This document shows positions 9,306 through 25,744 of a stretch of DNA of 64,000 bases, piece after piece. Made by a program: the position numbers and the translations under genes. Location: assembly GCA_964501355.1 (NCBI GenBank), contig CAZCSM010000004.1, positions 3,340 through 67,339 on the forward strand, given 5' to 3'. The notes under the pieces were generated by a model. That model was not told the origin of the DNA. It was given only the letters and a program-made list of their open reading frames with translations, and ran no database searches. This stretch comes from an uncultured Candidatus Saccharibacteria bacterium. Lineage in GTDB: Bacteria; Patescibacteriota; Dojkabacteria; CAZCSM01. The first letter of the stretch is position 1. Each line of letters starts with the position of its first letter.

Positions 9306-9345
9306 ATTATCCTGTAGTCTTATTTATTGACTAATCACATATTAA

Positions 9346-10281
9346 GTGTTATTATCCAAACAACTGTCCTACTGCATAAACGCCCCTGATATTTATAATT
9401 TCTTTGATTTTGAGATGATTGATACACAAGAAACCGTTAACTTATTTATAAAGCAGCTGGAGACAGAAGGCAAGTCCAACTCGACCCTTCTTGCATATGG
9501 AAAAGACATTGAACAGTTCATTGAGCTTATTAACAAGATACATCTTGATACTCTCGATGAACTAGAGGAAGAACATATTAAACTCTTCTTGGAGTCTTTA
9601 GAAAAGCAGAACTATACGCCGAAAAGTATCTCAAGAAAACTTAATAGCATCAGAACCTTTTGCAAGATTATGAATGAAAAAGGATTGATGATTAAGAACC
9701 CTTCAAGTGTTGTATCTCATCCAAAGATTGAAGTAAAAGAACCACGAGTTCTAACGGAACTTGAATACAGAGCATTAAGAGATGTTTGCAGAAGAGATCA
9801 AAGACTTTACACAATAATCGAGCTAATGCTTCAAACAGGAATTCGAATTGGAGAATTAGCAAGACTTAAACTTGAAGAACTAAAGTTAGAAAAGAAATCC
9901 GGAGAGATCTTTATTCGAGCATATGGTAGCAATGGAGAGAGAACAATCCCTCTTAATGATACAGCAGCTTTATCACTATCAGACTATTTGAAGGAAAGAT
10001 ACCAAACAGAAAACACCGCAGTCTTTGTAACCAAAACAGGACGGCCCCTACTCGTTCGAAACATCAGAACTTCTGTAAACAGAGCTTTCAAGAAAGCCGG
10101 CATTGAAAATGCAAAAGTGAATGATTTAAGAAACACTTTTATCGCACACAACCTTGCAAAGGGAGCGGATCTTGTTAGAATCTCTCAAATCGTAGGACAT
10201 AAGAGAATATCAACAACTGAGAAGTATTTAGATCTTATTAAAAGCGACGAGCAGAACAAAACAAAACTAGAAGAACTGTAA
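9346..10281 (+). CDS. tyrosine site-specific recombinase (XerC/XerD/integrase family)
   Basis: N-terminal SAM-like core-binding domain. C-terminal catalytic motifs R...HNLAKGADLVRISQIVGHKRISTTEKY (H-x-x-R ... Y). Lies next to the twin tRNA-Met genes. The true start is probably the internal Met at about 9411. Confidence 0.75.
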   Translation: MLLSKQLSYCINAPDIYNFFDFEMIDTQETVNLFIKQLETEGKSNSTLLAYGKDIEQFIELINKIHLDTLDELEEEHIKLFLESLEKQNYTPKSISRKLNSIRTFCKIMNEKGLMIKNPSSVVSHPKIEVKEPRVLTELEYRALRDVCRRDQRLYTIIELMLQTGIRIGELARLKLEELKLEKKSGEIFIRAYGSNGERTIPLNDTAALSLSDYLKERYQTENTAVFVTKTGRPLLVRNIRTSVNRAFKKAGIENAKVNDLRNTFIAHNLAKGADLVRISQIVGHKRISTTEKYLDLIKSDEQNKTKLEEL

Positions 10282-10393: not shown

Positions 10394-12007
10394 ATGGAAG
10401 ATCAGGAACAAGCCCCCATTCAGCCTACGCAACTACCAGTTGCTGCTGCACCAATGAATGAACAACCACTGGAGAAATCTCAAAGCAAATCCGGAATACT
10501 AATAATCCTAGTATTATTGCTTCTACTCCTAGCAGGAATAGCCGGTATTTTTGCATATGCCTTCCTGAGCAACAAGAACATCCCTATCATTTCGGATATT
10601 GTTGAACAGGTAGAAAATGTGGCAGTTAGTGATGAGCAGTTCGCAGAGATGGTTCAGGACCAACTTAGCGAAGCTATTTTTTCCACAATAGAAAAAACGA
10701 GCTCGGTAGCGGCAACCGAAGCAATTGTTGAAATTGATGCATCAGAAGAGTTCTTAAATAATTATGCAGAATCAACAACAAAAGGATTATCCTCATATCG
10801 TTTCGACAGCATGATTGACATGCAGATTACCACAGAGGATGACTATTATCCTGTTGACCTAGGAATACAATTAAGTATGGATGGAGCAGTTCAAGCAAAT
10901 GGTGACACGTTGAAGCTCGAAACAAATATTTATGGAGAGTACGCTGAAGCGGAAACAAACTTGATATTTGACGGGAACATCAAAGCTCTCGGAGAGGTTC
11001 TCTATTTCAAGATTAACGAGTTACCCGACTTTGGAGTCGATCTAGATGAGTTTCTAAATACATGGTACTTCCTGGATATTACGGAAGAAGAAGACTTAGT
11101 CACGGGTCTTAAAGAAAGCCAAGGACTGGAAACAGATGATAGTATTTCAGAGGATGATCTAGAGAAACTTAACCAGCTTATTACAGGAGAAACCATTAAA
11201 GCAAACATCGTTCGATTGCCAGACATGGTGTTGGAAGATGAAGAGAAATTTGGCGAATCAACTGGGACAAGGACAAATTGCTTCGAACTTAATCTAGATG
11301 GAGACGATATTGTCGCCCTGGTCGAGGAAATTGAAAAAATTTGGGAAGTCACTGATGCGGAAAAAACTTCGAGCTCAGATAAGGCTGAAATCAAAAACAC
11401 ATTTCAAGAGGTCAGTATGGGCGCATGTGTAGGACGACAGGATCATCAAGTATACAAATACATGTTCGACGTTGCTTTGGACTCAGAGGGAACAGCATAT
11501 GCAATGAATGGATGGTCCGAAATGTGGGATCACAATAAAGATGTTAATATTGCGGAACCTACCGATGCCATTAACTTCGAAGATGCAATCGGAGATATAC
11601 TTAATACTGTAACACCAGAACCATATGGCCCTGCTGCCCAATTATCGAGCACGAGAAATACAATTCGAAAATCTGATATTAATGCCATGCTTCAAGCAGC
11701 AAGTCTCTACACTATTGATAATGACGGAGAATTCCCCACTATCAATGGTGAGCCGATGAAGACATTAACCATTGAAGATGGTTATGCCTACTGTGAAGAA
11801 TGGGGAGAATGTTTTGCTACAGATCTTGATGAAATCGCAGATGGATTTGGTGCCTACTTAACAGAAATCCCACTGGACCCTCAATATGATATGGACTATC
11901 TGATTGGAGTTGACGATTCAACAAATCCAATGCATATAATAGTAGCAACAAATTATATGGAAGAAGGAGATGATCAGGTCGGTACACTATACTATCTGGA
12001 ATATTAA
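10394..12007 (+). CDS. hypothetical membrane-anchored acidic protein
   Basis: 537 aa. N-terminal TM (ILIILVLLLLLLAGIAGIFAYAFL) followed by a long D/E-rich extracytoplasmic region. No catalytic motif recognised. Confidence 0.4.
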   Translation: MEDQEQAPIQPTQLPVAAAPMNEQPLEKSQSKSGILIILVLLLLLLAGIAGIFAYAFLSNKNIPIISDIVEQVENVAVSDEQFAEMVQDQLSEAIFSTIEKTSSVAATEAIVEIDASEEFLNNYAESTTKGLSSYRFDSMIDMQITTEDDYYPVDLGIQLSMDGAVQANGDTLKLETNIYGEYAEAETNLIFDGNIKALGEVLYFKINELPDFGVDLDEFLNTWYFLDITEEEDLVTGLKESQGLETDDSISEDDLEKLNQLITGETIKANIVRLPDMVLEDEEKFGESTGTRTNCFELNLDGDDIVALVEEIEKIWEVTDAEKTSSSDKAEIKNTFQEVSMGACVGRQDHQVYKYMFDVALDSEGTAYAMNGWSEMWDHNKDVNIAEPTDAINFEDAIGDILNTVTPEPYGPAAQLSSTRNTIRKSDINAMLQAASLYTIDNDGEFPTINGEPMKTLTIEDGYAYCEEWGECFATDLDEIADGFGAYLTEIPLDPQYDMDYLIGVDDSTNPMHIIVATNYMEEGDDQVGTLYYLEY

Positions 12008-12053: not shown

Positions 12054-12297
12054 TTTCTTCTATTTTTCTATAATAATATCAGCCAATAATCCTTCTTAAG
12101 GACAGAAGAGTCATGAATAAAATATCGTTGAGTTTGGGGATTACATTTTAATTTCTCAAATGGTGGGCCTCTTGATGGGGTTTTACAACTTTTAGAACAC
12201 TTCAAAAAGTTCTACGAAGAGACAATTAGCTTTTCACAATACATTCCAGAACTGAAAAAATATACGACCAACAATTCCTTGCTGGCCGCATAGTAAT

Positions 12298-12511
12298 ACC
12301 TAAAAATTCAATTGAATTTACGACTCAATAAGCATTGGCATAACTTCGGCAATAAAAGCCTGTGAATCCTCTTCTGACACACCACATTCATTCATGATTG
12401 GAATACCTAAAAATTCAATTGAATTTACGACTCAATAAGCATTGGCATAACTTCGGCAATAAAAGCCTGTGAATCCTCTTCTGACACACCACATTCATTC
12501 ATGATTGGAAT
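12298..12511. repeat. perfect 107-bp tandem direct duplication (2 copies)
   Basis: 12298..12404 and 12405..12511 are identical. Each copy contains the last ~26 codons plus stop of the 106-aa minus-strand gene, and an AATTCAATTGAATT palindrome. Confidence 0.9.
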
Positions 12512-12745
12512 GCTCGTCATAACAATATCCAACATTGCTGCACTAGAATCTAATTCACCAGCTCTAAATTTAGCCGTCAAAGTAGCTAATTCCTCCACTC
12601 TCCCTGTTCTATACAACTCATGTAGGAACCTCCCAGCCATATCTGGCTGTCCTTGGCAAATTTGAGACAGTGTTTCGACATCAGCTTCAGCTAGAAGTTG
12701 CTGTTCATTTTGGGCAGGGAAAAAAGTAAAATCGGCTTTTCCCAT
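12425..12745 (-). CDS. hypothetical acidic protein
   Basis: 106-aa ORF. Its 3' end lies inside the downstream copy of the 107-bp tandem repeat. Confidence 0.35.
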   Translation of the reverse strand: MGKADFTFFPAQNEQQLLAEADVETLSQICQGQPDMAGRFLHELYRTGRVEELATLTAKFRAGELDSSAAMLDIVMTSIPIMNECGVSEEDSQAFIAEVMPMLIES

Positions 12746-12795
12746 AACGAGAAGCTTGCTTAATTAAAGTGTGAGGATTATATAAGCTTTTGGAG

Positions 12796-12993
12796 CTATT
12801 CGTCAAATCTCGTGTCTATTGCAAAAGGAACAATTTTGATTCGACTATTTATTTTAATTAACACCTGAAATAATCCAACAAGGTTAGAAAAAGCTTCCCG
12901 AGATTCTTCGTATGAATAATCAACTCCATAGTTTGCTTTCATACTTTTCTGATAATCTCGGACGGTTTCATCAGAAATAGGAATGAGGGGCAT
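12796..12993 (-). CDS. hypothetical small protein
   Basis: 65-aa ORF sitting directly upstream of the YgjP-like gene, in the same orientation. Confidence 0.25.
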   Translation of the reverse strand: MPLIPISDETVRDYQKSMKANYGVDYSYEESREAFSNLVGLFQVLIKINSRIKIVPFAIDTRFDE

Positions 12994-13009
12994 TGTCGTA
13001 ATGACTAAA

Positions 13010-13726
13010 CTAAACCATTACTAACTCTAGTCTTTCTTTTAGTTCTTTCCAATTAGGCAGTTGTTTTTCAAGAACTTCGAAGTAATCCTTACTATGATTC
13101 GGGTGAACTAAATGACAAAGTTCATGAACTATCACATAATCAACACATGACTTAGGGGCTTTAATAAGTTCAGGGTTTAATGATATCAGCCCACCATTAG
13201 AACAGCTCCCCCACTTTCTCGAAAGTCTCTTCATTTGCAACCGTGGTTTCTTACCTACTTTTTGCTTCTTTATAAATGATTCCGACAATTCCTCGAAACG
13301 CTCTTGGAAAATTCTTTTTGCATTTCGCTCATACCATTGAGAAAGCAAAAGCTTTACATAATCTTTATTATCAACACTTGTTTCAACTACTAATCGGCCT
13401 CTATAAAGTTTTATGTTGGAATCTTTTGATTTCTTAATTTTCAACATATATTGACGGCCGAGATATTTATGTGTTTCGCCATTAACATATTCTCGTTTCG
13501 GAGTTCTAGGAAGAAACTTTTCGAAATACTGTTGTTGCTTCTTTATCCAGGCTCCTCGTTTTTTCAACCGTTCTTGAATTTGACCCAAACTCGCTGTTAT
13601 GGGGGCTTTAACTTCAACGGTAAGGTCTGGATAAACGTCAATAGACAAAGTCTTTCTGCTTTCTTGTTGCAATGTGAAAGGAATCTCTAGCGAACCATAT
13701 TTTATAATATGACGAGAAAGTTTCAT
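13010..13726 (-). CDS. YgjP-like (DUF45/M48-like) zinc metallohydrolase
   Basis: Carries the motif VIVHELCHLVHPNHSKDYFEVLEKQLPNWKE, an HExxH plus the downstream pattern typical of COG1451. Overlaps the hsdR stop by 4 nt. COG1451 genes are commonly found next to hsdR. Confidence 0.7.
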   Translation of the reverse strand: MKLSRHIIKYGSLEIPFTLQQESRKTLSIDVYPDLTVEVKAPITASLGQIQERLKKRGAWIKKQQQYFEKFLPRTPKREYVNGETHKYLGRQYMLKIKKSKDSNIKLYRGRLVVETSVDNKDYVKLLLSQWYERNAKRIFQERFEELSESFIKKQKVGKKPRLQMKRLSRKWGSCSNGGLISLNPELIKAPKSCVDYVIVHELCHLVHPNHSKDYFEVLEKQLPNWKELKERLELVMV

Positions 13727-16700
13727 TTATATCTATTCTTTGCTACTTCAATTGAAGTATCGATAATCTCATCCATTTCATCAAAGCTTATTCTAAGATT
13801 TAGACTCTTGTTAAGTTCATATAGATATTCATCAATCGCAGTTCGCATTTTATTCTGAACATCAACATTGCTCTGGAAATCAACAATCTTATATTTCTTT
13901 ATAATCTCATCTATCGCTACTCCAATTTCCGCTGATAACTGTTTGTTATCTGTATTCTCAACGGCCTTTCGATTAATAACAGCACCCGCCACACCATAAA
14001 ATGCTTTTGCATTGTCATTACCCTCAAGTATGGAAGGCGTGTCATCACCCTTTCTCTCAAGAACATTGCCAACCATCTCCTTCATTCTTTGCAGATATTC
14101 AGCATCCGTAATACGCTTATCTCGATATTCTTTTATTGTTTCTTCTAACAAGTCAGAAAACTTTTTGTAATATGTCGGGTCTTCGTTCATCTTCTCCGTT
14201 AACGTTTTTTTCAATCGACTTGCCATAGTATCAGCCTGAGCAGCTGTACCCTCAATACCTTCAACCTCTTGTTGAAACTTGTCTTTATCAAAAATGTTTA
14301 CCTGTTCTGTTATTTGAATAACCTCGTCTGTAGTAATATGCGTATCAATAAGCTTCTGAATTTGTGCTTCATATTGTTTGTAATCAATATCATCCGAGTA
14401 TCGCTGCTTTACAGAAACCCTCAATTTCAAGAAGAACCTAGAATCATTTTTGTACATATTAACCTCATCTTCTGGAACTTGTTCCTCAAATTCTAGTGTT
14501 GATAAAGCAAGTTTTAGTGTCCTTGCAAATTTGGATAATGAATCATAAAAATCATTTCTCAATTCATCATCTGCAAGAAGCTGTTCATATTCTTCTAAAT
14601 CCTGTCTGTTCTGAATTACATTAAATATGTCCCAAACTTCTGAATGATACTGTTTCAGATTTGCAATTTCTTCTTTGACGTTTGTCAGCGTTCCGATTAA
14701 ATCCTCTTCATCGAAACTAGAAAGCGAACTATACGTTGTCAAAGCTTTATCTAGTTCCCCCAATATTCCGTAATAATCGATAATGTAACCGTAATCTTTT
14801 CCCGTATGAACACGGTTAACCCTTGCGATGGCCTGAAGCAAGGTGTGTTCTTTCAAACTTCTGGTTATGTAAAGAACAGTATTTCTCGGAGCATCAAAAC
14901 CTGTTAACAACTTATCAACAACAATTATTAACTCTGGCTCATCACTTTTCTTAAAAGCATCAATCAGCTGTCTGTTATACCTTTCTTCATTTCCGTACTT
15001 ATCCATCATGGAATGCCAAAATCTCAAAACAACGTCCTCAGATTCACTAAAAATATCTTCATGACCTTCCCTCGTATCGGGGCCAGAAATAAGGACGTCC
15101 GATTTAATAATCCCGATTCTATCGAAGAACTGTTTATATTTGACGGCAGCAGCTTTTGAAGGAGCTGTTAATTGTGCTTTATATTCTGTTCCTTGCCAAT
15201 TATCTCGGAAATGTTCACTTACATCCCAAGCTATCGCATAGAGCTTTTGTTCAGCTTCGTTTAGTTGGTCTGCTCGACTGAATTTATCTTTTAATACTCC
15301 TGCCTGCTTTTCTGTTAGTGGTTGAGATATTCGGTCAAAATATGTATCAATAGGTTTTCTATTTACATCCTGAACAGCTAAACGGCCTTCATACAGCAAA
15401 GGGACAACCGCTTTATCTTTGACAGCTTGGTCTATGGTGTACTTATCTATAATACCCCCAAACTTCTGTGCTGTATTCTTATCCTTTTTCAGCAAAGGTG
15501 TCCCCGTGAAGCCAATATAGCAAGCATTAGGAAGAACTTTCTGCATTTTTACATTTGCTGTACCGTATTGACTCCTGTGACTTTCATCTACAAGGACAAA
15601 GATTTCTGAAGATTCATTAACAGTAACTTGCCTTTCAAGTCCCGATTCGAACTTGTCGATTACTGTTGTAATGATGTCATATTTTGGCTTTTCGACAAGC
15701 TTCATCAATTCCTTTCCACTGCTAGCCTTTACAACTTCTTTTCCACAATCGTTAAATGTGTCATGTATCTGCTTATCTAAATCAACTCTATCAGTCACAA
15801 CAACTATCTTTGAGTTCGAATAATCCAAAGCAAGAGACTTGGCAAGCATAACCATTGTTAAAGACTTTCCGCTTCCTTGGGTGTGCCAAATTACACCACC
15901 TTTTCTTCTTCCTTGCTCTAAATTCTTAACCTTTCTTAAGGTTTTCTTCACTGCAAAATATTGTTGATATCTTGCAATCTTCTTTGTACCAGCATCGTAA
16001 ACAATGAACTTATAAATCAGTTCTAACAGTCTTTCTGGCCTACATAAGCTATACAAATCTCTATCTTGTTTTGTTACCTTTCGTTCTATTTCTTCGAGTA
16101 AATCAAAGTATTGTCGAACGTATCTAAATCTTTCTGTAAACAACCTGTCTTTTACCTCTTCTTGAATTGGTGTGTTTTTCAGTTTTGAAATAACAGTCTC
16201 ATATTCAGACTTTTGCTCATCGTTTTGAAATTGTTCTTTCCATACAGCCCAGAAGTCTTCTGATGTTCCTGTTGTTGCGTACTTTGAATCATTTCCGCTA
16301 GTTGCAATAAGAAGTTGTGAATACTTAAACAGTTGCCTTATCCCGTCTTCCTTTTGGTTTCGTATGTGCTGAGATACAGCCTGCTCTATCGGTTTATCAA
16401 TGTCGGGACGCTTACATTCAATCACGACAAGAGGGATTCCATTCACATAGAGGACAATGTCAGGTCTGTAATGTTCGTGTAGTCCAGTTCTCTCTACTTC
16501 CAGTTCCTCGGTTACATGATACTCATTATTCTCGGGATTTTCCCAATCAATGTATTGAAGGGTAAAGCTCTTGCGGTCTCCGTCTACATTCTGTTCAAAA
16601 CTTTTCCCCATAACGAGCAAATCAAAGACATTCTCGCTTGCAACCATTAATCCTTCATTCAAAGGTACTTCTCGGAGAGCATCAATTGCACGCTGAATAT

Positions 16701-16923
16701 TTGAATCTGAAAATTCATGCTCTGAGCCCTTGAAAGAAAATCTGTTCAACTTCTTTAACTGTTGCTCCAGAATATCCTGAAGTAACACTTTTCGTGTCGA
16801 ATTGCCTCGAAGCTGAAGAGCTTCTTCTTGGGATAAATATTTGTAACCCATATTCACCAAAAGCTGCAATGCAGGGATTTGAGAAATATGGTCTTCTTTG
16901 AATGATGGTGTCGTTATTTTCAT
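13723..16923 (-). CDS. hsdR: Type I restriction enzyme R subunit
   Basis: 1066 aa. N-terminal PD-(D/E)xK nuclease (IVLYVNGIPLVVIECKR). SF2 helicase Walker A HTQGSGKSLT and DEAH box VLVDESHRSQ. HsdR-type C-terminal region. Confidence 0.9.
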   Translation of the reverse strand: MKITTPSFKEDHISQIPALQLLVNMGYKYLSQEEALQLRGNSTRKVLLQDILEQQLKKLNRFSFKGSEHEFSDSNIQRAIDALREVPLNEGLMVASENVFDLLVMGKSFEQNVDGDRKSFTLQYIDWENPENNEYHVTEELEVERTGLHEHYRPDIVLYVNGIPLVVIECKRPDIDKPIEQAVSQHIRNQKEDGIRQLFKYSQLLIATSGNDSKYATTGTSEDFWAVWKEQFQNDEQKSEYETVISKLKNTPIQEEVKDRLFTERFRYVRQYFDLLEEIERKVTKQDRDLYSLCRPERLLELIYKFIVYDAGTKKIARYQQYFAVKKTLRKVKNLEQGRRKGGVIWHTQGSGKSLTMVMLAKSLALDYSNSKIVVVTDRVDLDKQIHDTFNDCGKEVVKASSGKELMKLVEKPKYDIITTVIDKFESGLERQVTVNESSEIFVLVDESHRSQYGTANVKMQKVLPNACYIGFTGTPLLKKDKNTAQKFGGIIDKYTIDQAVKDKAVVPLLYEGRLAVQDVNRKPIDTYFDRISQPLTEKQAGVLKDKFSRADQLNEAEQKLYAIAWDVSEHFRDNWQGTEYKAQLTAPSKAAAVKYKQFFDRIGIIKSDVLISGPDTREGHEDIFSESEDVVLRFWHSMMDKYGNEERYNRQLIDAFKKSDEPELIIVVDKLLTGFDAPRNTVLYITRSLKEHTLLQAIARVNRVHTGKDYGYIIDYYGILGELDKALTTYSSLSSFDEEDLIGTLTNVKEEIANLKQYHSEVWDIFNVIQNRQDLEEYEQLLADDELRNDFYDSLSKFARTLKLALSTLEFEEQVPEDEVNMYKNDSRFFLKLRVSVKQRYSDDIDYKQYEAQIQKLIDTHITTDEVIQITEQVNIFDKDKFQQEVEGIEGTAAQADTMASRLKKTLTEKMNEDPTYYKKFSDLLEETIKEYRDKRITDAEYLQRMKEMVGNVLERKGDDTPSILEGNDNAKAFYGVAGAVINRKAVENTDNKQLSAEIGVAIDEIIKKYKIVDFQSNVDVQNKMRTAIDEYLYELNKSLNLRISFDEMDEIIDTSIEVAKNRYK

Positions 16924-17519
16924 TCTTTCTTCAGGTTATTTATTTTCTGTTCTAATTCATTAAGCCTACTCTCAAAAGGCTCATACTTTTTTAACTCTTC
17001 ATTTTCAAATCTATCTTTCAGTCGACTAAATTCCTCATTTAATGAAGTTAATTTACAGACATCCTCGTCTTTGGCAGAATTTGTAAAATACCCTCCAACT
17101 GAAATCAAAAAGATAGATAAAAGAGATACAGCAATAAACTTGAAAGTGGCCCTCTTCTCTCTACGACTATTAACCGTATAATCAAGAAGCAACACAAACA
17201 GTGCAAGAAGCCCTCCCAAAACAAGACTTAACCCTAGAACCCTATTGAAATCACAAACACTTTTAATTATCTGAACTTCGATAAGAAGAAATGCAACAAT
17301 CGAAGCAAATATTCCCAAAACAGAGATATAATCAGCCGTTACTGAACTTCGAGTATCTTCAATATTATTTTTTAACTCTTGCTTAAGTTCGTCTAAATCA
17401 TCAAAGGTAACTGCCGTCTGTTCGTTTCCGCTTGTTAGCGGTCGACGAAAAACCTGCTCAAATAAGCTTTCACGCTCAGTCTCTACTTTATTATGAATAT
17501 CTCTATTATTCTTCGGCAT
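16920..17519 (-). CDS. hypothetical membrane protein with C-terminal coiled coil
   Basis: 199 aa with three predicted TM segments plus a coiled coil. Lies between hsdS and hsdR. Confidence 0.35.
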   Translation of the reverse strand: MPKNNRDIHNKVETERESLFEQVFRRPLTSGNEQTAVTFDDLDELKQELKNNIEDTRSSVTADYISVLGIFASIVAFLLIEVQIIKSVCDFNRVLGLSLVLGGLLALFVLLLDYTVNSRREKRATFKFIAVSLLSIFLISVGGYFTNSAKDEDVCKLTSLNEEFSRLKDRFENEELKKYEPFESRLNELEQKINNLKKE

Positions 17520-17772
17520 AATTTTCTACATCTGGCATTAAAGCTTTAACAGCAAAAAAATACACTCTTCCCGTCTTATTCCCTACTACAGCAATCATTG
17601 GAAGGCTGGGACCCCCAATAACAAAAGATGAGGACATCTCTTTCTGAAAAGGACTATTAAAGAAACCGTCCACTAAAGTAAGCCCCTCAGGTTCAGTAAA
17701 CCCTAAGAAGCTCTTCCTTTCGTCAATTGCACCTACCAATTTATCTTTAACTTTCTCAAACTTAACGGTCAT
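17506..17772 (-). CDS. hypothetical protein
   Basis: 88-aa ORF between hsdS and hsdR, overlapping the next gene by 14 nt. Confidence 0.3.
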   Translation of the reverse strand: MTVKFEKVKDKLVGAIDERKSFLGFTEPEGLTLVDGFFNSPFQKEMSSSFVIGGPSLPMIAVVGNKTGRVYFFAVKALMPDVENYAEE

Positions 17773-17793
17773 TCTTTTATTAAAAGAAGTAAT

Positions 17794-19056
17794 TTAACCT
17801 AATTTTACCCTAACCTCACCAGTAAGCAACTTCTGCATCAAACCTTTTTTCTCAAGCTTTAATTTCTCCAGTTCATCCTTCAACAACTCAATCTCCCTAT
17901 CCTGCTCACTCAATAATTCAGCAATTTTCTTTTGTTCTTCAATTGACATTTGCAAAATGGGACAATCGAGAACTTGGTCTTTCCTTAAGTTGGTTTGACT
18001 AACACCATCATCAAACTTCAAATAATATCTGTTGCGATTCAACGTGTAGTATAGATATCTGCTGTCGAGAAAATCATTCACTCTCAGTTTACATATTCGC
18101 TGATTCAGTGCATATTTATTATCCTCCTCAATGTAAAAGCATCGAGCTAAAGCTCGACCATTCGGTATATCGCTCATGACCATCGCAACATCCCCCTTTA
18201 CCAAAGGAAGCAAGTTCTCATTTACGTGCTTTTTGACACGGCCCCCAGTTGAGATAAACTTCGAGTTAACAAGGACATACTTTCCCTCAGAATCTACATA
18301 TGACTCATGAGCCTTTCCATTTTCGAAATCCACCAACAAAAATAACTTCACAACCTCCCAATCCTCAGGAACTTTCCCAATCTTCGTATCAACTAACTTC
18401 TCACTCTTTACAAACTCACTAAACCTCACCTTCCCCGTCAACAAAACCTGCATAAACCCCTTCTTCAATTCCTTTTTCTTCTCAATCAACATCTCAACCA
18501 TCTCAATCGCCTCATCCCAAGCAGAAAGAATCTCAGCAATTTTCTTTTGTTCAGAGATTGGAGGGAAAGGTATTGCAAACCTTCCCAAATCACTATTATT
18601 TATTGAGTTTATGGTTGCACCTAGGTTTCTATGTACTTCTTTTCGATAAATATCTGTATCAAAGACCTGAAACACAAAGTCATTATGTTCACTCCTGTAA
18701 ATTGACATGAATGCACCAAAAGCTTTTCCCTCAACACTCTTGTCAATCAATGCATTTTTACCAATCAGACTCCTACTGCCATTCCTTACACAAATGAGTA
18801 TGTCATTTCCCTTTACTGGATTAACTTTTAAGTTTGATGTATCCACATATACGTTGTCCTTAAATGATAGCTGTCGATTCTGAACATTTGAAGACCTTAA
18901 CACCAACGTCCCCGTATCCCGAACATCTTTAGGAGAGTATGTTAGACCGTTTATCATCTTCCCTATCTCTCTCAAGGTTACCACGTGCCAACTATCAGGA
19001 ATCCAACCTACTTTTGTTTCTTTATAACCTTTTCTATTTTCGTTAACTTTGCTCAT
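17794..19056 (-). CDS. hsdS: Type I restriction-modification specificity subunit
   Basis: Two target-recognition domains separated and followed by the conserved coiled-coil repeats (...LLTGKVRF... and ...LLTGEVRVKLG). Confidence 0.8.
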   Translation of the reverse strand: MSKVNENRKGYKETKVGWIPDSWHVVTLREIGKMINGLTYSPKDVRDTGTLVLRSSNVQNRQLSFKDNVYVDTSNLKVNPVKGNDILICVRNGSRSLIGKNALIDKSVEGKAFGAFMSIYRSEHNDFVFQVFDTDIYRKEVHRNLGATINSINNSDLGRFAIPFPPISEQKKIAEILSAWDEAIEMVEMLIEKKKELKKGFMQVLLTGKVRFSEFVKSEKLVDTKIGKVPEDWEVVKLFLLVDFENGKAHESYVDSEGKYVLVNSKFISTGGRVKKHVNENLLPLVKGDVAMVMSDIPNGRALARCFYIEEDNKYALNQRICKLRVNDFLDSRYLYYTLNRNRYYLKFDDGVSQTNLRKDQVLDCPILQMSIEEQKKIAELLSEQDREIELLKDELEKLKLEKKGLMQKLLTGEVRVKLG

Positions 19057-19187
19057 TAAAACTTATTAAAACTCAAGAATTTTACAATTGTAAAACAATT
19101 TAACATGTAGTATAATCTTAACAGCCTTGCAAAAGGCAACAAAACATTGGCTTAGGGGCTTTGATATACAGAGTCCCTTTTGCATTT

Positions 19188-19940
19188 TTATCCCCCAATC
19201 TCTTTACTCCAACAAATAAAGTCCTTAATCTTTTTCAATTCAAAAACAAAAGAACCCGTCTGGGATAATTCAATGGAAATCCTACGGGATGTTGCAAATA
19301 TTATTGCATTCTTCCCCTTAGTTTTGAGATGTTCAATGGTATCAGCGAAATCGCTATCACCACTCCACAAAACAAAATTTTCTATAGATTCATCCTGAAT
19401 ATTATCAATCAACATATCCGAAGCAAGCTCAACATCAAAATTACACTTCAGATGCTTAATGTGTGTAATTCCCTGTCGATTCAGTTCAAGAAGCCTCTCA
19501 TTCAGAAATTCTATTGTTTCCAAATCAAACTTACCCAACAATGCTTTATCAATATAATCTTTTATAACAAAGGGAGAATCAATTGGAGTTCCCGTCATAT
19601 CAATTGAGAGGTTCATTTCTTTAACAGGTTTCGTTCTTACCACATATCCCCATTTTTCTAAATCTTCAACCGTTTTACGAGAGTCTTCATTCCCATTCAA
19701 CACACCCTGATACACAACAACCTTATTTACATTTGTGTATGACCTTAATAATTGAATCAATCTTTTAAAATCTATATGCCATCCCAATTTCTTCTGCCAA
19801 TGAAAAACATTGGCATAGTCGATGTAGATATTTGTTTTCTTCGTAAAAGATTTTGAAAGGAACTCTATCTTTTTAGGATATTTTTCTGCTAATTTTGCAA
19901 TTCTATCTGTACTAGGATTGAATATTTCTTTTTTTGCCAT
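19188..19940 (-). CDS. NYN-domain (LabA/PIN-like) predicted RNA nuclease
   Basis: NIYIDYANVF...CNFDVELASDM...VLWSGDSDFADTIEHLKTKGKNAIIF matches the NYN pattern (iDg.N ... nvDvala.D ... SgDsDf.pl...l...Gk.v.v). Located between hsdM and hsdS. Confidence 0.5.
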   Translation of the reverse strand: MAKKEIFNPSTDRIAKLAEKYPKKIEFLSKSFTKKTNIYIDYANVFHWQKKLGWHIDFKRLIQLLRSYTNVNKVVVYQGVLNGNEDSRKTVEDLEKWGYVVRTKPVKEMNLSIDMTGTPIDSPFVIKDYIDKALLGKFDLETIEFLNERLLELNRQGITHIKHLKCNFDVELASDMLIDNIQDESIENFVLWSGDSDFADTIEHLKTKGKNAIIFATSRRISIELSQTGSFVFELKKIKDFICWSKEIGG

Positions 19941-20025
19941 TGAACTATAACCAAATAAATGTAAAAATGTCTTACATCAGGGGGAAAAGACTTTGAGGTT
20001 CCGTCCTCAAAGCAACACCCCCATT

Positions 20026-21591
20026 TTATACCAATTCCAATTCCTCTAAATATTTTTTCATCTTCTTTCTCGATTCCTCAACCAGCTCTTCCAATTCTTC
20101 TATCTCACCATGAACAGTCTTAATATCAACAGTCTCTTCTTCTTCAAAAGTATCAACATATCGAGGAATGTTAAGGTTATAATCATTCTCTTTAATTTCT
20201 TTAATGTTTGCTCTATACGAATATTTTTCAATCGTTTCAAAATCTCGGTAAGTTTTTACAATCTTATCAATATCCTCTTTTCTCAATTTATTCTGATTCT
20301 TCCCGTCAGCAAATTCACGACTAGCATCAATAAACAAAACATCATCTGTAGTCTTCGCTTTATTAAAAACAAGAATTGCAGCAGGAATACCCGTCCCGAA
20401 GAACAAGTTGGAAGGAATCCCAATAACAGCTTCAATCAAGTTCTCTTTCAAGAATTGCTCTCGAATCTTACCTTCCGCACTACCTCGAAATAAAACACCA
20501 TGAGGAACAACAACACCGACTTTACCAGTCTCGTTAATCGTTTCAACCATATGAGAAATAAAAGCATAGTCACCTTTACCCGTTGGGGGCATTCCTCGCC
20601 AGAATCGCTTGTATCTGTCGCTCTCCACATCTTCAGCACCCCATTTCTTCAAAGAAAACGGAGGATTAGCAACAACATAATCAAACTTCATCAACTTATC
20701 ACCTTCAAAAAGAAGAGGATTACGAATCGTATCCCCCCACTCAATCCTTGCACTATCCATATCATGCAAGAACATATTCATCTTACACAAAGCCCAAGTG
20801 CTACCATTGCTCTCCTGTCCGTAAAGAGAAAAGTCTCTGCCACCAACCTCATTCGCAACACGAATAAGCAAAGAACCAGAACCGCAAGTAGGGTCACAAA
20901 TGCGACTGCCCTCTTTAGGACTTAACAATTTCGCAATCAAAATGGAAACTTCAGCAGGAGTATAAAACTCACCACCCTTTTTACCAGCATCACTAGCAAA
21001 TCGAGAAATGAGATATTCATAAGTGTTGCCGATTATATCCTCAATACCCACATTAGACGGCCTCAGGTCCATTCTCTCGTCCGCGAAATCCTCAAGTAGA
21101 TGTTTCAATCGTGAGTTCCTATCTTTGGTCTGTCCGAGATTTGATTCTGAATTGAAATCAATGTTTCGAAAGACACCTTCAAGCTTGTCCTTATTTGCAT
21201 CTTCTATTGCATAAAGGGCCTTATTTATCTTCTCTCCAATATCAGTATCCTTTCGATGCTCAAAGAGATAATAAAAGTCTGAGTTTTCAGGAATCTGGAA
21301 ACGCTCATTACGCATCACACGCTCAACACGCTGCCCATCCCCATTATACTTCTCGAGAAGTGTTTCCTTTCTATCCTTCCACACATCACTCAGGTACTTA
21401 ACGAAGAGCATTACAAGTATGTAGTTCTTGTACTCAGAAGGGTCAACAACCCCACGAAAAGTATCACACGCCTTCCACGCAATAGAATTAATCTCTTTTT
21501 GAGAAATATTTGAATCTTTCATCTGTCCTTGCAACAAATTGATTAAATTTTGAAACATTTTTATTATATTACAAAATTCATCCAAAAGCAC
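20026..21591 (-). CDS. hsdM: Type I restriction-modification N6-adenine DNA methyltransferase subunit
   Basis: N-terminal HsdM_N. SAM-binding motif ICDPTCGSGSLL and catalytic motif VVANPPFS (NPPF). Confidence 0.9.
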   Translation of the reverse strand: MLLDEFCNIIKMFQNLINLLQGQMKDSNISQKEINSIAWKACDTFRGVVDPSEYKNYILVMLFVKYLSDVWKDRKETLLEKYNGDGQRVERVMRNERFQIPENSDFYYLFEHRKDTDIGEKINKALYAIEDANKDKLEGVFRNIDFNSESNLGQTKDRNSRLKHLLEDFADERMDLRPSNVGIEDIIGNTYEYLISRFASDAGKKGGEFYTPAEVSILIAKLLSPKEGSRICDPTCGSGSLLIRVANEVGGRDFSLYGQESNGSTWALCKMNMFLHDMDSARIEWGDTIRNPLLFEGDKLMKFDYVVANPPFSLKKWGAEDVESDRYKRFWRGMPPTGKGDYAFISHMVETINETGKVGVVVPHGVLFRGSAEGKIREQFLKENLIEAVIGIPSNLFFGTGIPAAILVFNKAKTTDDVLFIDASREFADGKNQNKLRKEDIDKIVKTYRDFETIEKYSYRANIKEIKENDYNLNIPRYVDTFEEEETVDIKTVHGEIEELEELVEESRKKMKKYLEELELV

Positions 21592-21653
21592 TTGACATTG
21601 TTTTTAGTTATTTGCTATACTTTCAGTGTTCAGTTAAGACTTAAGTATTTATT

Positions 21654-21956
21654 ATGGAAACATTTGGAGAAGTTATAAGAAACTATCGAGTCCAAAAAGA
21701 AATGACCTTACGTGAATTATCGGAAAGAGTTGGCGTATCACCATCGTTCATCTCAATGATGGAGAATAACAAGAATTTGGGTACAGCAAGCGAAGAGACA
21801 ATTTGTAAAATGGCGTCAGTTCTAGGAATCAATGAGCTCAAGCTTCTCAATTTAGCTGAGAAGGTTCCCGAAAAAGAACTGGTTCAGCTAAAGCAAAACG
21901 CTTTAGCATTTTTTAGAGATGATTTACAGAGCCGAAAAAGTAAAATGGTTAGATAA
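21654..21956 (+). CDS. XRE-family helix-turn-helix transcriptional regulator
   Basis: HTH_3-like segment MTLRELSERVGVSPSFISMMENNK. Transcribed divergently from hsdM. Confidence 0.7.
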   Translation: METFGEVIRNYRVQKEMTLRELSERVGVSPSFISMMENNKNLGTASEETICKMASVLGINELKLLNLAEKVPEKELVQLKQNALAFFRDDLQSRKSKMVR

Positions 21957-22644
21957 GAAAGATATTGAATCTACTACTAACAAAATTATTAAAATAACCT
22001 GCCCAAACAGGAAGCCTTTCACCCCCATCAACACGGAACAAGTAATCATATATATTCAAAATCGCTATGACAAAAAGTTACAGCTTTGGACAGGAAAGAT
22101 TTCTGAAGGACTTGATGGAAAATACGAGCTTTCCGAAAATGGATATAGAATCATCACAATCAATGAGAATCTTTATAACAATCCCACAGAATCCCTTGAA
22201 CATATAATAGCCCATGAATTTGGACATTATTGGTATCACACGACATATTTAAAACAGATAATGCAGCAAAAGAACATTCTAGGAGCCGCATTCCCCAGCA
22301 CTAGCAATCGTAAGCTATTTTCAAATTACAGTGATGCAGAATGGCAAGCCGATTACTTCTCAGGGGCATTGAGATTACCAAGTGATGAAGTATATGCCAA
22401 GCATTCTTCAATGTTTGACAATCTGGGGATTCTGGGTAAATTTCAAAACAATAGTGCATTATATAGATACATTGGAGAAGATGCGACACATACAACATTA
22501 GAGCATTGGGCAAAAGAATTTGGTGTAACACCATTCTGCTTATCAGTAAGAATGTTCTATATTGGAATATTAGATGCTGGGGGTAGAAGCTTTATTTCAT
22601 ATGACAGAAAGAGCAGAAAGGTTATTGAGGGTTTCGCATATTAA
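21919..22644 (+). CDS. ImmA/IrrE-family zinc metallopeptidase
   Basis: HEXXH motif IIAHEFGHYWYH. Partner of the upstream XRE regulator, with the gene overlap typical of such pairs. Confidence 0.7.
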   Translation: MIYRAEKVKWLDKKDIESTTNKIIKITCPNRKPFTPINTEQVIIYIQNRYDKKLQLWTGKISEGLDGKYELSENGYRIITINENLYNNPTESLEHIIAHEFGHYWYHTTYLKQIMQQKNILGAAFPSTSNRKLFSNYSDAEWQADYFSGALRLPSDEVYAKHSSMFDNLGILGKFQNNSALYRYIGEDATHTTLEHWAKEFGVTPFCLSVRMFYIGILDAGGRSFISYDRKSRKVIEGFAY

Positions 22645-22765
22645 AAAATTTTAAGACAAATGTTCAGTGAACGCTTAACATATTAAAGCTATAAAACCCC
22701 AGTTCTTGTACAACTGGGGCAAATGATAGAGCAAACAATTAGTTTATTTTAGTAGGACAAACATC

Positions 22766-23941
22766 ATGTTAGACACTATCAGCTTGATTCTATACGGCAA
22801 GCAACTCAAAATCAACCCCGAAGACGACGGTTGCGTTGAATACATTGGGAATGCACTATATAAACCAACACTAGAACAAGCAACCCCCAAAGGATACATT
22901 ATAAATCGTTCCAAAAAGGTTAAGCACCTTAAGAAGAACAAACCCGAATGGGCGTACTCAATCAGAATTGACGAAAGCAATCCAAGAGGACGACAAATCC
23001 GTGTAAACATAGAGTTTTCTATTCCCAAACTTATATTAGGAAGCAGTCTGTATGAGGTTGAGCTGAACGAAGAAAACTACAATAAACTAATCAATAAACT
23101 TTATACCGAACTATCCCCTCATATAATTGACCTATCTAAAAATGACCTTGAAACTTCCGTAATTAAACGAATAGACTTTTGTAGGAATATCATTCTTCCA
23201 GAGAAGGATTCAGAGATTAACTGGATAATAGGGATTCTTGCAACGTATGACTTAAATGCGAGATATGATTTATCGAAGAAAGACTATCAAAACGATGAAA
23301 GAAAAGGTACATCAATAAGCTTTTTCAACAAAAGCCAAGCAATAAAATTTTACAATAAATTAGAAGAGATTCAGAATCTAAAATCCCTCACCCTTACAGA
23401 ACAAACACTCAAAAAAACACTGGATAAAAGAACAACCTCAAGCCAAGTTTTTCGTATAGAAAGAAGTCTACAACGATATCAAACTGTAAATTACGTTCTG
23501 TCAAAATTCATTGATAAGAAAAACAAATTCATACTCAAAGACGTATGGAATGAGGAGATGGCAAAAAAGCTTCTGATAGAACTTGTGGAAGACATTGTGG
23601 ACAAGAACATAAGTTTATTCACATGTTTTCAAAGCCCCGATGATGCAACGCTAATTAATGACTTGCTAAAAGCTTTTTCACTCGGAGACGTTTCAAAGAT
23701 TTACATGATGAAAAAGCTCGTTGACCAAGTTGGAACAACAGGAACAAAGAAATTACTACGAAAGCATATCTCAAGAGGAGCATATGACTATACACTTAGG
23801 AAGCTACTTGCAGCAAGCAAGGTTTTGGAAAAAGAGAAAGCGATATCTATTGGAAGTACATGGAGCAACATACTCGGTCAACTACGAAACAATGAATTTA
23901 TTACTTCCGAAAATTGGCAAGATAAAATACTAGATGATTGA
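22766..23941 (+). CDS. putative rolling-circle replication initiator (Rep_trans-like)
   Basis: 391 aa. KGTSISFFNKSQAIKFYNKLEEI and VFRIERSLQRY resemble the 'G.R.s....r.YdK..E' and 'R.E' blocks of the Rep_trans family. Recalled from memory, not a search. Confidence 0.4.
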   Translation: MLDTISLILYGKQLKINPEDDGCVEYIGNALYKPTLEQATPKGYIINRSKKVKHLKKNKPEWAYSIRIDESNPRGRQIRVNIEFSIPKLILGSSLYEVELNEENYNKLINKLYTELSPHIIDLSKNDLETSVIKRIDFCRNIILPEKDSEINWIIGILATYDLNARYDLSKKDYQNDERKGTSISFFNKSQAIKFYNKLEEIQNLKSLTLTEQTLKKTLDKRTTSSQVFRIERSLQRYQTVNYVLSKFIDKKNKFILKDVWNEEMAKKLLIELVEDIVDKNISLFTCFQSPDDATLINDLLKAFSLGDVSKIYMMKKLVDQVGTTGTKKLLRKHISRGAYDYTLRKLLAASKVLEKEKAISIGSTWSNILGQLRNNEFITSENWQDKILDD

Positions 23942-24116
23942 TAAGCATACAGCAAGAACAACATTAGGAACTGAAGCAACTTACATGTCGGACGAGCAAA
24001 TCGATTCCATTCTGAATATGTTTTACTCTTTCGCTGAAGTTGCTTATGAAGAATATACTCGGAAAAGGTTGGCAAATAATACAATAGTAATTTATAATAA
24101 AAATGGAGACTGTTAA
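23934..24116 (+). CDS. hypothetical small protein
   Basis: 60-aa ORF between the Rep-like gene and the serine recombinase gene. It sits where a small recombination-directionality or accessory protein could be, but there is no direct evidence. Confidence 0.2.
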   Translation: MIDKHTARTTLGTEATYMSDEQIDSILNMFYSFAEVAYEEYTRKRLANNTIVIYNKNGDC

Positions 24117-24169
24117 ATAAGCAAGGGCTGCCAGAACAACTGTTCAGGTTGTTTTGATTTAGGGGGTAT

Positions 24170-25744
24170 TTGCTCTGTCCTTGCGACAGTCTCCAAAATG
24201 CAGATGCCCCCTTAGTCATATTTGGCATTATGGATAAACCAAACGCAATTTTATACACGAGAGTATCCTCAGAACGACAAGTTGAAAACACTAGTCTTGA
24301 TGAGCAGGAAAAATATGGTAAGCAATATTGTGATAAAAAAGGACTCCATCTAGTGAGTGTTTTCCGAGAAGAAGGAGAATCGGCCAAGACGGACGATAGA
24401 ACACAATTAAAAAACGCACTTGCATATTGTTCTTCAAAAAAGAATGATATTAAATTCTTCCTAGTTTATCGGTATGACAGATTTTCCCGTTCTGTAGAAC
24501 ATCACCATAGTCTCAAAGCCGCACTAAGTAATTGGGGGGTTAGAGTAGTCTCGATGACTGAAGAAGTTGATGACTCTCCAGAAGGTAAGTTTCTCGAAAA
24601 CATTCTTGCCGCAGTTGCACAACTAGATAATGACAATCGTTCTGTTAAATCAAGCAATGGAATGAAGGCTATTTTGGAACAAGGACTCTGGCCATTTCCC
24701 CCACCCTACGCATACATAAAAGGCAAAGAAAACATCAACAAAGTAAACCCTCTTATTCCCGACCCAGAAAGATTCGACCTAATCAAAAAGGGATGGCAAA
24801 TGATGCTAACAGGAAGATACAAAAGCGTAGAAATCGTAAAAGAGCTTAATAATCAAGGATGTACGACAAGAACTGGGAAAAAGATGACTGAGGGACTAAT
24901 ATCCAGAGTGTTTAATAATCCGTTCTATGCAGGACAAATAAACTGCCCTAAATTTAATATTAAGGAAATTGAAGGGAAACACATGCCAATGATTAGCATT
25001 GAAGAGTTCTACAGAGTCCAAAAAATTATCAGTGACCAATCAACATCAAAGAAAGTTCCTCATAGCAAATATAATCCCGATTTTCCTCTCAATAAGATAA
25101 TATACTGCACGCACTGCGGAAGAGTTCTAACAGGAAGTTGGGCAAAGAAACATCTGGGACTTGGTTATTATAGATGTCTAAATTCAGAATGTAATAACAG
25201 AGACGGCAATAGTAAGGATGGTATTGAAGAAAGCTTTATAGAATTACTTAGAAGAATTAAGCCAACTGAAAAGCTACAACAACTATTTAGATTGGTGGTA
25301 AAAGACGTTTTTGAAAATAAGTTATCAGAGAAAGTTTCTTCCAAAAAGACAATCGAACAAAATCTACGAAAACTTGAAGAACAGAAGGTAAGAATTGAAG
25401 AACTATTGGAACAAGGTGTTTATGATGTTGATAAATATCGACTGAAGATATCAAAAATCTCACCAGAAATAGAAACTCTGAAGATTAACATATCTGAAAC
25501 AAACATAGAGATTTACGACCTTGAAACCTATGTGAATTACGCACTTCAATTTATTAACAATTTACCAGACTACTGGTTACAACTTCCGCCAGAAGCGAAA
25601 CATAAACTTAATTGGGCGATTTTCCCTAAAGGGTTAAAGATTCAAAATGGGAAAGTTACAACCGACGAATTAGCCAGTATTTATACAGATATTCAGGAGA
25701 TTGCGAAGCATAGGGTTACAAATGGTGGGCCTTCTGAGATTTGA
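24170..25744 (+). CDS. large serine recombinase (resolvase/invertase catalytic domain + recombinase domain + zinc ribbon)
   Basis: N-terminal catalytic domain with AILYTRVSSERQ (catalytic Ser) and FLVYRYDRFSRS. Recombinase domain and a Cys-rich ribbon (CTHCGR...C...C). C-terminal coiled coil. The likely start is the internal MDKPNA. The 3' end overlaps the tRNA by 22 nt. Confidence 0.8.
   Translation: MLCPCDSLQNADAPLVIFGIMDKPNAILYTRVSSERQVENTSLDEQEKYGKQYCDKKGLHLVSVFREEGESAKTDDRTQLKNALAYCSSKKNDIKFFLVYRYDRFSRSVEHHHSLKAALSNWGVRVVSMTEEVDDSPEGKFLENILAAVAQLDNDNRSVKSSNGMKAILEQGLWPFPPPYAYIKGKENINKVNPLIPDPERFDLIKKGWQMMLTGRYKSVEIVKELNNQGCTTRTGKKMTEGLISRVFNNPFYAGQINCPKFNIKEIEGKHMPMISIEEFYRVQKIISDQSTSKKVPHSKYNPDFPLNKIIYCTHCGRVLTGSWAKKHLGLGYYRCLNSECNNRDGNSKDGIEESFIELLRRIKPTEKLQQLFRLVVKDVFENKLSEKVSSKKTIEQNLRKLEEQKVRIEELLEQGVYDVDKYRLKISKISPEIETLKINISETNIEIYDLETYVNYALQFINNLPDYWLQLPPEAKHKLNWAIFPKGLKIQNGKVTTDELASIYTDIQEIAKHRVTNGGPSEI

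Follow-up and report, generated by a model that had tools for sequence, protein, structure and literature searches.

Predicted genes for an NYN-domain ribonuclease and a convergent structured small RNA within a Type I restriction-modification locus of an uncultured Patescibacteriota bacterium

Gene content of the locus

The stretch of DNA analyzed here (the window) comprises 64,000 nucleotides (nt) of contig CAZCSM010000004.1 (assembly GCA_964501355.1, positions 3,340-67,339) from an uncultured member of the Patescibacteriota, and the coordinates of the locus are counted within it. Seven consecutive open reading frames (ORFs) on the minus strand, spanning positions 13010-21591, are arranged in the order hsdM, NYN, hsdS, orf88, orf199, hsdR and YgjP-like; they comprise the genes of a Type I restriction-modification (RM) system, a gene for a 250-amino-acid (250-aa) protein with an NYN domain, and two small genes. 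An earlier note on this locus, made from the sequence alone, had described this gene order, the RM system, the NYN nuclease candidate and a 4-nt overlap between hsdR and the YgjP-like gene, and the ORFs and profile searches reported below agree with it on all of these points. The acidic residues and the PIN-like fold, which the note proposed to examine in the NYN protein, are present as well, the fold in a predicted structure. Absent from that first reading was a small RNA (sRNA) gene, which lies on the opposite strand in the 131-nt gap between NYN and hsdS and is central to our interpretation. The features of the locus are as follows.

12157-25737, strand not assigned: putative integrated mobile element of ~13.5 kb that holds the entire RM locus, bounded by a direct repeat (boundaries inferred)
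13010-13726, minus strand: YgjP-like (DUF45/WLM-type) zinc metallopeptidase (PF01863, 7e-56)
13723-16923, minus strand: hsdR, restriction/translocase subunit, 1066 aa (Pfam, NCBIfam, PADLOC)
16920-17519, minus strand: orf199, membrane protein with three hydrophobic segments between charged helical ends, second gene of a conserved two-gene cassette
17506-17772, minus strand: orf88, small soluble protein, first gene of the same cassette (homologues lie upstream of orf199 homologues)
17794-19056, minus strand: hsdS, specificity subunit with two target-recognition domains (Methylase_S, 1.7e-31 in two stretches; PADLOC Specificity_I, 8e-75)
19088-19116, plus strand: predicted sigma-70-type promoter of the sRNA, TTGTAA-17 nt-TATAAT, pointing at the 3' end of NYN (promoter scan, 10/12 matches)
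19121-19189, plus strand: predicted structured sRNA gene of ~66 nt, convergent with NYN (covariance-model match, 55 bits, E 1e-9)
19154-19178, plus strand: terminator-like site of the sRNA (simple terminator scan)
19188-19940, minus strand: NYN-domain (LabA/DUF88-like) predicted metal-dependent ribonuclease (RNase), 250 aa (PF01936, motifs, fold)
19980-20022, minus strand: hairpin followed by UCUUUU, between hsdM and NYN (fold of 19941-20030, minus strand: -28.2 kcal/mol, z = -3.4)
20026-21591, minus strand: hsdM, methyltransferase subunit, 521 aa from a GTG start

The NYN protein

The 250-aa protein matches PF01936 with an E-value of 4.9e-19 (69.7 bits against a cut-off of 24.2). In an alignment of 80 homologues, six residues of the acidic motifs are invariant (D41, N44, D169, E171, D195 and D197) and two others, D114 and D175, are at least 90% conserved. 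The AlphaFold2 model (predicted local distance difference test, pLDDT, 93.5) has a PIN-like alpha/beta fold, for which the best Foldseek matches are the LabA-like structure 2qip (1e-8) and the NYN domain of MARF1 (5yaa/6fdl), with probability 1.00, and a profile search lines up the motifs of the protein (D..N, the central D and the C-terminal GDxDF) with those of 2qip. Beyond the domain itself, the protein has a helical N-terminal extension and a conserved insertion at approximately residues 100-165. No ABC-ATPase or anticodon-nuclease domain was detected in searches of Pfam, NCBIfam and PADLOC, which returned the NYN domain only.

More than 1,800 homologues were found, nearly all of ~248 aa and ~50% identical to the window protein, and they derive chiefly from metagenome bins of Patescibacteria (the candidate phyla radiation, CPR) and Omnitrophota. 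At least 480 relatives occur among the stretches examined of 185,579 species representatives. A phage or plasmid origin of the gene was considered and rejected: a single full-length homologue was found in 2.9 million viral contigs (IMG/VR), and plasmids of cultured bacteria yielded no full-length homologue, the only matches being 25-30%-identical sequences from Bradyrhizobium.

A predicted structured small RNA gene converges on the NYN gene

We surveyed the neighborhoods of the best 79 of at least 480 genome loci from species representatives, using crude ORF calls; homologous loci are cited by number (L004 and so on). In every surveyed locus a conserved element lies directly 3' of NYN, with DNA more than 90% identical over 37-63 nt, compared with ~50% identity for the proteins. 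Read on the strand antisense to NYN, the family layout is a promoter (TTGACA-N17-TATAAT), a spacer of ~7 nt, hairpin A, a semi-conserved linker, hairpin B and a U-run. Hairpin A is variable in sequence and mostly has a GNRA loop, and the consensus of hairpin B is GCUU-ARGGGCUCC-GNRA-GGAGUCCYU-UUKGC. The promoter has at least 9 of 12 consensus matches in 74 of the 79 loci and is perfect in 12, and the predicted 3' end of the RNA overlaps the NYN ORF in 68 of them (median 3 nt, maximum 44 nt). The window copy follows this layout, with a GCAA loop in hairpin A, a linker, a hairpin B of the form GCUU-AGGGGCUUU...AGAGUCCCU-UUUGC that contains a G.U pair, and a U-run, and it terminates at the NYN stop codon. 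Its fold is far more stable on the plus strand (-23.4 kcal/mol, z -3.4) than on the minus strand (-14.7 kcal/mol, z -0.4).

Both hairpins show compensatory change. RNAalifold supported hairpin B, with compensatory changes in 7 of its 11 pairs; used alone, MAFFT and RNAalifold missed hairpin A because its length varies, and alignment to a covariance model built from 16 seed sequences recovered it. In the latter alignment 96.8% of cells are paired (80.6% in shuffles), compensatory double changes occur in 13 of 17 pairs, and the covariation score is 0.529, as against 0.217 for shuffled alignments and at most 0.14 with slid partners. The G.U pair of hairpin B is found in 76 of 79 sequences, or 77 of 80 in a second count, and would be an A.C mismatch if read on the NYN-sense strand, which fixes the RNA strand as the one antisense to NYN.

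The window element (12-26 kb searched) has no match in Rfam 15 at E<=1, nor do 11 homologous loci at E<=0.1, and no paper describing it was found in the library searched. The predicted RNA is a well-supported structured family absent from Rfam 15, with at least 150 examples. A second sRNA-like copy within the YgjP gene of the window (13148-13166, a 17/19 repeat) has neither a hairpin downstream nor a covariance-model match and was taken as a chance resemblance.

Some members of the family have a DnaA-box sequence, TTATCCACA in either orientation, no more than 30 nt upstream of the sRNA promoter. An exact box was found in 12 of 79 loci, and one with at most one mismatch in 24 of 79, compared with background rates of 0.1% and 1%, respectively. 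This enrichment suggests DnaA control of the sRNA in those members. For example, the box lies just upstream of the sRNA -35 element in L008, L009, L012, L020, L045 and L073, and it is absent from the window.

Linkage of the small RNA to NYN

The linkage between the RNA and NYN is near-obligate. In 1.0 Mb of sequence (the window and the homologous loci) the covariance model gave exactly 81 matches, one for each NYN gene and hence two in L012, which has two NYN genes; all 81 are antisense to and adjoin an NYN gene, with no orphans and no NYN gene lacking the RNA (0/81). The RNA also adjoins the 40%-identical NYN gene of a viral contig, again by covariance-model match. In the reverse direction, a search of metagenomes with the hairpin B pattern found a convergent NYN gene in 76 of the 78 loci that had enough sequence. 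The two copies of hairpin B without NYN are in L093 (2626-2656) and L117 (645-675), the latter following an unrelated 157-aa gene; these orphans may be what remained when the nuclease gene was lost. In L145 and L162 the RNA stands beside an NYN reading frame that is split over two frames, and these may be pseudogenes or assembly errors. None of the 81 NYN genes is therefore without the RNA, while the RNA occasionally occurs without an intact NYN, and such an asymmetry would be expected if the two were a toxin-antitoxin pair whose antitoxin is an RNA.

NYN genes recur in, and outside, Type I RM loci

The placement of NYN between hsdM and hsdS, which the earlier note had singled out, is not unique to the window. 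The same arrangement is present in seven loci, namely the window, L004, L007, L011, L012 and L028 (genomes) and L118 (a metagenome contig, with the order hsdM-NYN-hsdS-hsdR-YgjP), and an eighth RM locus, L030, has the order hsdS-NYN-hsdR. Identity to the hsd genes of the window is only 30-51% in these relatives, and the RM-embedded NYN proteins are scattered over several separate clades of the family tree. This pattern points to repeated insertion rather than to one inherited arrangement.

Embedding in Type I RM loci is nevertheless a minority condition: it was found in 6 of the 79 genome loci, and ~85% have no hsd gene within 8 kb. Since most copies lie outside RM loci, the module appears to be autonomous. 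Its neighborhoods are highly variable (516 neighboring proteins fall into 446 clusters), and, apart from a KTSC gene (6 loci) and hsdM (5 loci), no common upstream flank or terminal repeat was found around the cassette. A Pfam census of the immediate neighbors counted N6_Mtase 6 times, HsdM_N 5, ResIII 5, Methylase_S 3 and KTSC 6, with all other families at two or fewer each, so that RM components and KTSC are the only recurrent neighbors across the 79 loci. Judged by these neighborhoods, the NYN gene is a mobile, self-contained unit that prefers RM loci and is not a dedicated RM subunit.

Several individual loci show variations on the module. In L021, L032, L057, L067, L073 and L075 a 70-aa KTSC-domain protein (PF13619, 1e-25) is encoded 4-12 nt upstream of NYN, and in L067 and L073 a gene for a ResIII-type helicase of 900-1000 aa follows that of the sRNA; this arrangement may be a three-part variant of the module. 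L012 has two complete NYN/sRNA modules (77-885 and 3775-4596) flanking one hsdM within 4.6 kb, on a contig that is labelled Helarchaeota and is possibly mis-binned. In L004, the closest RM-embedded relative, an extra gene for a 240-aa protein (8911-9630) lies between the NYN/sRNA module and hsdS, and the hsdM/hsdS junction is therefore able to hold more than one inserted gene.

The RM system and its putative mobile element

HsdM, HsdS and HsdR are all full length by Pfam, NCBIfam and PADLOC. HsdM matches N6_Mtase (2.9e-107) and HsdM_N (1.2e-29) in Pfam, TIGR00497 (4e-93) in NCBIfam and MTase_I (1e-149) in PADLOC; a public gene call uses an alternative start 11 codons downstream. HsdS has two target-recognition domains, and HsdR combines a PD-(D/E)XK nuclease with a superfamily 2 (SF2) translocase, matching HSDR_N (5e-42), SWI2_SNF2 (2e-84), T1R_D3-like and T1RH-like_C (a HindI-like C-terminus), as well as TIGR00348 (2e-145) and REase_I (2e-228). 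The locus is, as predicted from these genes, a complete and intact Type I system. The reading frames are tightly packed: hsdR and the YgjP-like gene share 4 nt (13723-13726), orf199 and hsdR also 4 nt, and orf88 and orf199 14 nt. A YgjP homologue is likewise found 3' of hsdR in L004, L030 and L118. The hairpin at 19980-20022 is a possible terminator or attenuator that would uncouple NYN from hsdM transcription.

The RM system probably travels on a mobile element integrated at a tRNA-Ile gene. Two 19-nt copies of the tRNA-Ile 3' end, identical at 17/19 positions, stand in direct orientation at 12157-12175 and 25719-25737, and a serine recombinase gene (24170-25744) abuts or overlaps, by its 3' end, the tRNA-Ile(TAT) located at 25723-25799 by a tRNA scan; it is on the strength of this repeat and recombinase that we propose an integrated element of ~13.5 kb. 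Its cargo beyond the RM genes includes an Xre-type helix-turn-helix (HTH) repressor (21654-21956), an M78/ImmA-like peptidase (21919-22644) and a Phage_CRI-like Rep protein (22766-23941). Housekeeping genes flank the region, FtsH and PolA on one side and SmpB and an SbcCD-like gene on the other, which places the RM locus in an accessory region.

Other observations in the window include a 107-nt sequence present in two tandem copies that are 98% identical, close to the left end of the putative element (12290-12503), which partly overlap a 106-aa ORF at 12425-12745; tRNA-Met genes and a tyrosine integrase at ~8.7-10.3 kb; and, beside that integrase, a 537-aa ORF without a Pfam match (10394-12007, plus strand). 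A Fic/DOC-family protein is encoded at 539-1597 (minus strand), and a type IV secretion pilin-like protein at 38315-39088 (minus strand).

The orf88/orf199 pair

The two small genes between hsdS and hsdR had been described as having no assignable function. This holds insofar as neither belongs to a curated family: orf88 has no family in Pfam, NCBIfam, PADLOC or PHROGs, and orf199 has none at a meaningful score in Pfam, NCBIfam or PADLOC, with a match to phrog_5763 at 1e-9. The two genes are, however, a conserved pair that recurs in RM loci. A word-based search found two relatives of orf199 and none of orf88; an exhaustive profile search found 533 relatives of orf199 at E<=1e-3, which makes it one of a broader group of about 500 small membrane proteins. 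In L081, L085, L086 and L087, homologues of orf88 (45-56% identical) lie directly upstream of homologues of orf199 (35-43% identical), and L208 and L211 have a gene of 80-83 aa in the orf88 position, matched by position alone. The single-sequence structure model of orf88 was unusable (pLDDT 46).

Three of the four informative contexts of the pair are RM loci, one of them weakly so. The pair of the window has hsdS on one side and hsdR on the other, and that of L081 is flanked by genes for an N6/N4 methyltransferase and a PD-(D/E)XK nuclease. In L086 it follows a fragment that matches hsdS only weakly, below the threshold (E 6e-4), and precedes the gene of a HARE-HTH protein; in L211 it stands beside an arginyl-tRNA synthetase gene. 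By these contexts orf88/orf199 is a separate conserved pair that tends to sit in RM loci, and a reasonable guess would be that orf199 is a membrane effector with orf88 as its small partner.

A possible toxin-antitoxin-like cassette

The reading that we favor, with a probability of roughly 0.55, is that NYN and its sRNA form an autonomous toxin-antitoxin-like cassette that has been repeatedly inserted into Type I RM operons. According to this model, two self-contained accessory cassettes, NYN/sRNA and orf88/orf199, would have been inserted among the hsd genes of an element-borne Type I operon. In the first of these, an abundant sRNA would keep the NYN RNase harmless. If sRNA synthesis were lost, for example through phage shut-off of host transcription or through loss of the element, the RNase would be released and could cleave RNA of the cell or of the phage. 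Placement between hsdM and hsdS would provide co-inheritance with the RM system and possibly a second line of defense.

Two modes of control can be envisaged. The sRNA could bind the NYN protein through the conserved hairpin B, in the manner of type III toxin-antitoxin systems, or it could pair with the 3' end of the NYN transcript, in the manner of type I systems (cf. Bacillus txpA/RatA). On the sense strand no U-run follows the hairpins, so NYN transcripts would probably extend into the RNA gene and anneal to the sRNA. Control by antisense pairing alone does not depend on a conserved sequence, and hairpin A is free to vary. Across phyla, however, there is almost no change in hairpin B, in its G.U pair or in the GCUU/UUKGC flanks, which points to a conserved partner that would recognize it, in the simplest case the NYN protein. 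The conserved sequence and the fixed G.U pair are indirect support for such binding. Pairing of the sRNA with the NYN translation start was considered as well and rejected, cognate pairs averaging -19.9 kcal/mol and non-cognate pairs -19.0 kcal/mol (p 0.38).

A more far-reaching proposal can be offered only tentatively. It holds that the sRNA directly binds and silences the NYN RNase through the irregular hairpin B, with its fixed G.U pair and its U.U mismatches, that its synthesis is wired to DnaA in approximately one third of copies, and that the pair has been recruited to hsdM/hsdS junctions as a backup that acts when host transcription collapses. NYN/sRNA would then represent an unrecognized class of RNA-controlled toxin or defense system widespread in CPR bacteria.

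Several observations weigh against the cassette model, beginning with the failure of the pairing comparison above to favor cognate partners. The gene is rare on viral contigs and plasmids, and classical plasmid-addiction behavior is not evident. Conservation of the NYN protein (mean column identity 58%) is unusually high for a defense or toxin gene, and most copies lie among housekeeping genes, so that a cellular RNA-processing role would fit the conservation and the context equally well. The layout departs from classical type I systems, whose toxins are small peptides, and from type III systems, in which a tandem-repeat RNA lies upstream on the same strand. HEC-09, a related embedded NYN protein, gave no phage protection in Escherichia coli (bioRxiv 10.1101/2024.01.29.577857). 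It should also be noted that the sRNA, its ends, and the activity and toxicity of NYN are predictions, and that the selection of loci and the crude ORF calls of the neighborhood survey limit what can be read from it.

Alternative explanations

The strongest competitor, which we nonetheless regard as unlikely, is that NYN and the sRNA constitute a housekeeping-type ribonucleoprotein or an autoregulatory pair acting in cellular RNA processing, in line with other functions of LabA/NYN proteins, and that they came to lie in RM loci by hitch-hiking in variable regions. This would explain the strong sequence conservation across phyla, the ordinary character of most neighbors (e.g., tRNA synthetases and the delta subunit of DNA polymerase III), the near absence from viral contigs and plasmids, and the DnaA box beside the sRNA promoter in ~30% of loci, which suggests cell-cycle coupling. 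It sits less easily with the patchy distribution of the family among species representatives, with the variability of its neighborhoods, with the two copies within 4 kb in L012, with RM components as the only recurrent neighbors, and with the existence of frameshifted NYN copies and orphan RNAs. Taken together, these traits are typical of mobile accessory genes.

Somewhat less probable still is a purely selfish role, in which the NYN/sRNA pair is a toxin-antitoxin system that stabilizes itself and the DNA around it, plays no part in phage defense, and finds in RM operons merely tolerated insertion sites. Such addiction draws on the same structural evidence as the cassette model (the RNA linkage and the covariation), and the location of the window copy on a probable integrated mobile element and the lack of defense by HEC-09 are in keeping with it. 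On the other hand, repeated independent placement at the hsdM/hsdS junction suggests more than neutral tolerance, and the rarity of the pair on plasmids and phages also counts against this role.

The earlier note had put forward a third possibility, by analogy with the anticodon nuclease PrrC: the HsdMSR complex would hold the NYN RNase inactive until a phage anti-restriction protein released it, the small RNA being incidental. In its favor, eight Type I operons, that of the window among them, have NYN embedded in them, in most cases as the gene next to hsdM; their hsd genes are divergent, and the NYN proteins belong to separate clades. Embedding as a backup defense is also an established idea for PrrC (bioRxiv 10.1101/2024.01.29.577857). 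We nonetheless consider this guard highly doubtful, because ~85% of family members (79 loci) have no hsd gene within 8 kb, so that Hsd proteins are not a general regulator, because the NYN protein lacks an ABC-ATPase or anticodon-nuclease domain, because the constant partner of every copy is the sRNA and not Hsd, and because PrrC, but not the NYN family, is almost exclusively RM-embedded. Latency imposed by the RM complex thus finds no support, and the earlier proposal is supported only in part.

The NYN/sRNA module is the most interesting result of this analysis; its linkage and RNA structure are well supported, and a toxin-antitoxin or defense function is a plausible hypothesis. If the cassette model is correct, NYN would be a new toxin fold, and a single convergent structured sRNA a new architecture among the few RNA-antitoxin systems. 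The model would, moreover, provide a starting point for work on accessory immunity in CPR bacteria, on which hardly any experiments have been done. Repeated insertion at one junction of unrelated Type I operons offers a clean case for asking why defense genes nest, for which orf88/orf199 is a second candidate.

Comparison with known systems

The prr locus, in which PrrC is embedded in the Type Ic system EcoprrI, resembles the window in having a predicted RNase gene within a Type I hsd operon, and the notion of a nuclease kept latent for suicide or as a backup suits both. The parallel drawn in the earlier note stands to that extent, and it fails in domain content, in exclusivity of embedding and in the identity of the constant partner. 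PrrC joins an ABC-ATPase to an anticodon nuclease in one polypeptide and is kept masked by the protein complex of the RM system; its gene is located after hsdS and ahead of hsdR. It occurs almost exclusively within RM systems (bioRxiv 10.1101/2024.01.29.577857). In contrast, NYN in the window lies between hsdM and hsdS, belongs to a family found mostly outside RM loci and has an antisense sRNA of its own.

The use of genes embedded in defense systems as defense candidates, termed "guilt by embedding", has been published, and an NYN protein, HEC-09, is among the candidates described (bioRxiv 10.1101/2024.01.29.577857). HEC-09, which is MARF1-like and embedded in Hma defense systems, is similar in being an NYN-fold putative RNase nested in a multigene defense system with conserved active-site aspartates. 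Its match to the window NYN is weak and partial (PADLOC E 1.5e-5 over ~70 residues) and its N-terminal domain is different; the available text of the preprint mentions no associated RNA, and HEC-09 failed to protect against the phages that were tried. The fold and the catalytic motifs are shared with LabA/DUF88 NYN proteins (2qip, VPA0982), whereas the family described here adds the N-terminal helical extension, the conserved insertion of ~65 residues and the antisense sRNA partner.

Among toxin-antitoxin systems, the type I pairs of Bacillus subtilis (txpA/RatA and bsrG/SR4) are alike in their convergent toxin and sRNA genes, a strong RNA promoter and a 3' overlap with the toxin gene. They differ in that their toxins are small hydrophobic membrane peptides, whereas the candidate here is a soluble 250-aa nuclease, and in that pure antisense pairing does not require the cross-phylum conservation seen in the sequence of hairpin B. 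The window pair thus has the cis-encoded antisense RNA overlapping the toxin gene that defines type I and does not have the small hydrophobic peptide toxin. Type III systems (ToxIN, CptIN and TenpIN), which have a known role in abortive infection, likewise combine an endoribonuclease with a structured non-coding RNA, and the RNA conservation described here suggests protein recognition as in those systems. Their ToxN-type toxins, however, have a Kid/MazF-like fold rather than an NYN/PIN-like one, and their antitoxin is a tandem-repeat RNA that is encoded ahead of the toxin gene in the same orientation and that the toxin itself processes, whereas the RNA here is single-copy, downstream and on the opposite strand. 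Neither a ToxN/AbiQ-type toxin nor an upstream same-strand tandem-repeat antitoxin RNA is present. Since some type I features and none of the testable type III features are found, the NYN/sRNA pair would be an RNA-antitoxin variant that lies outside the existing families.

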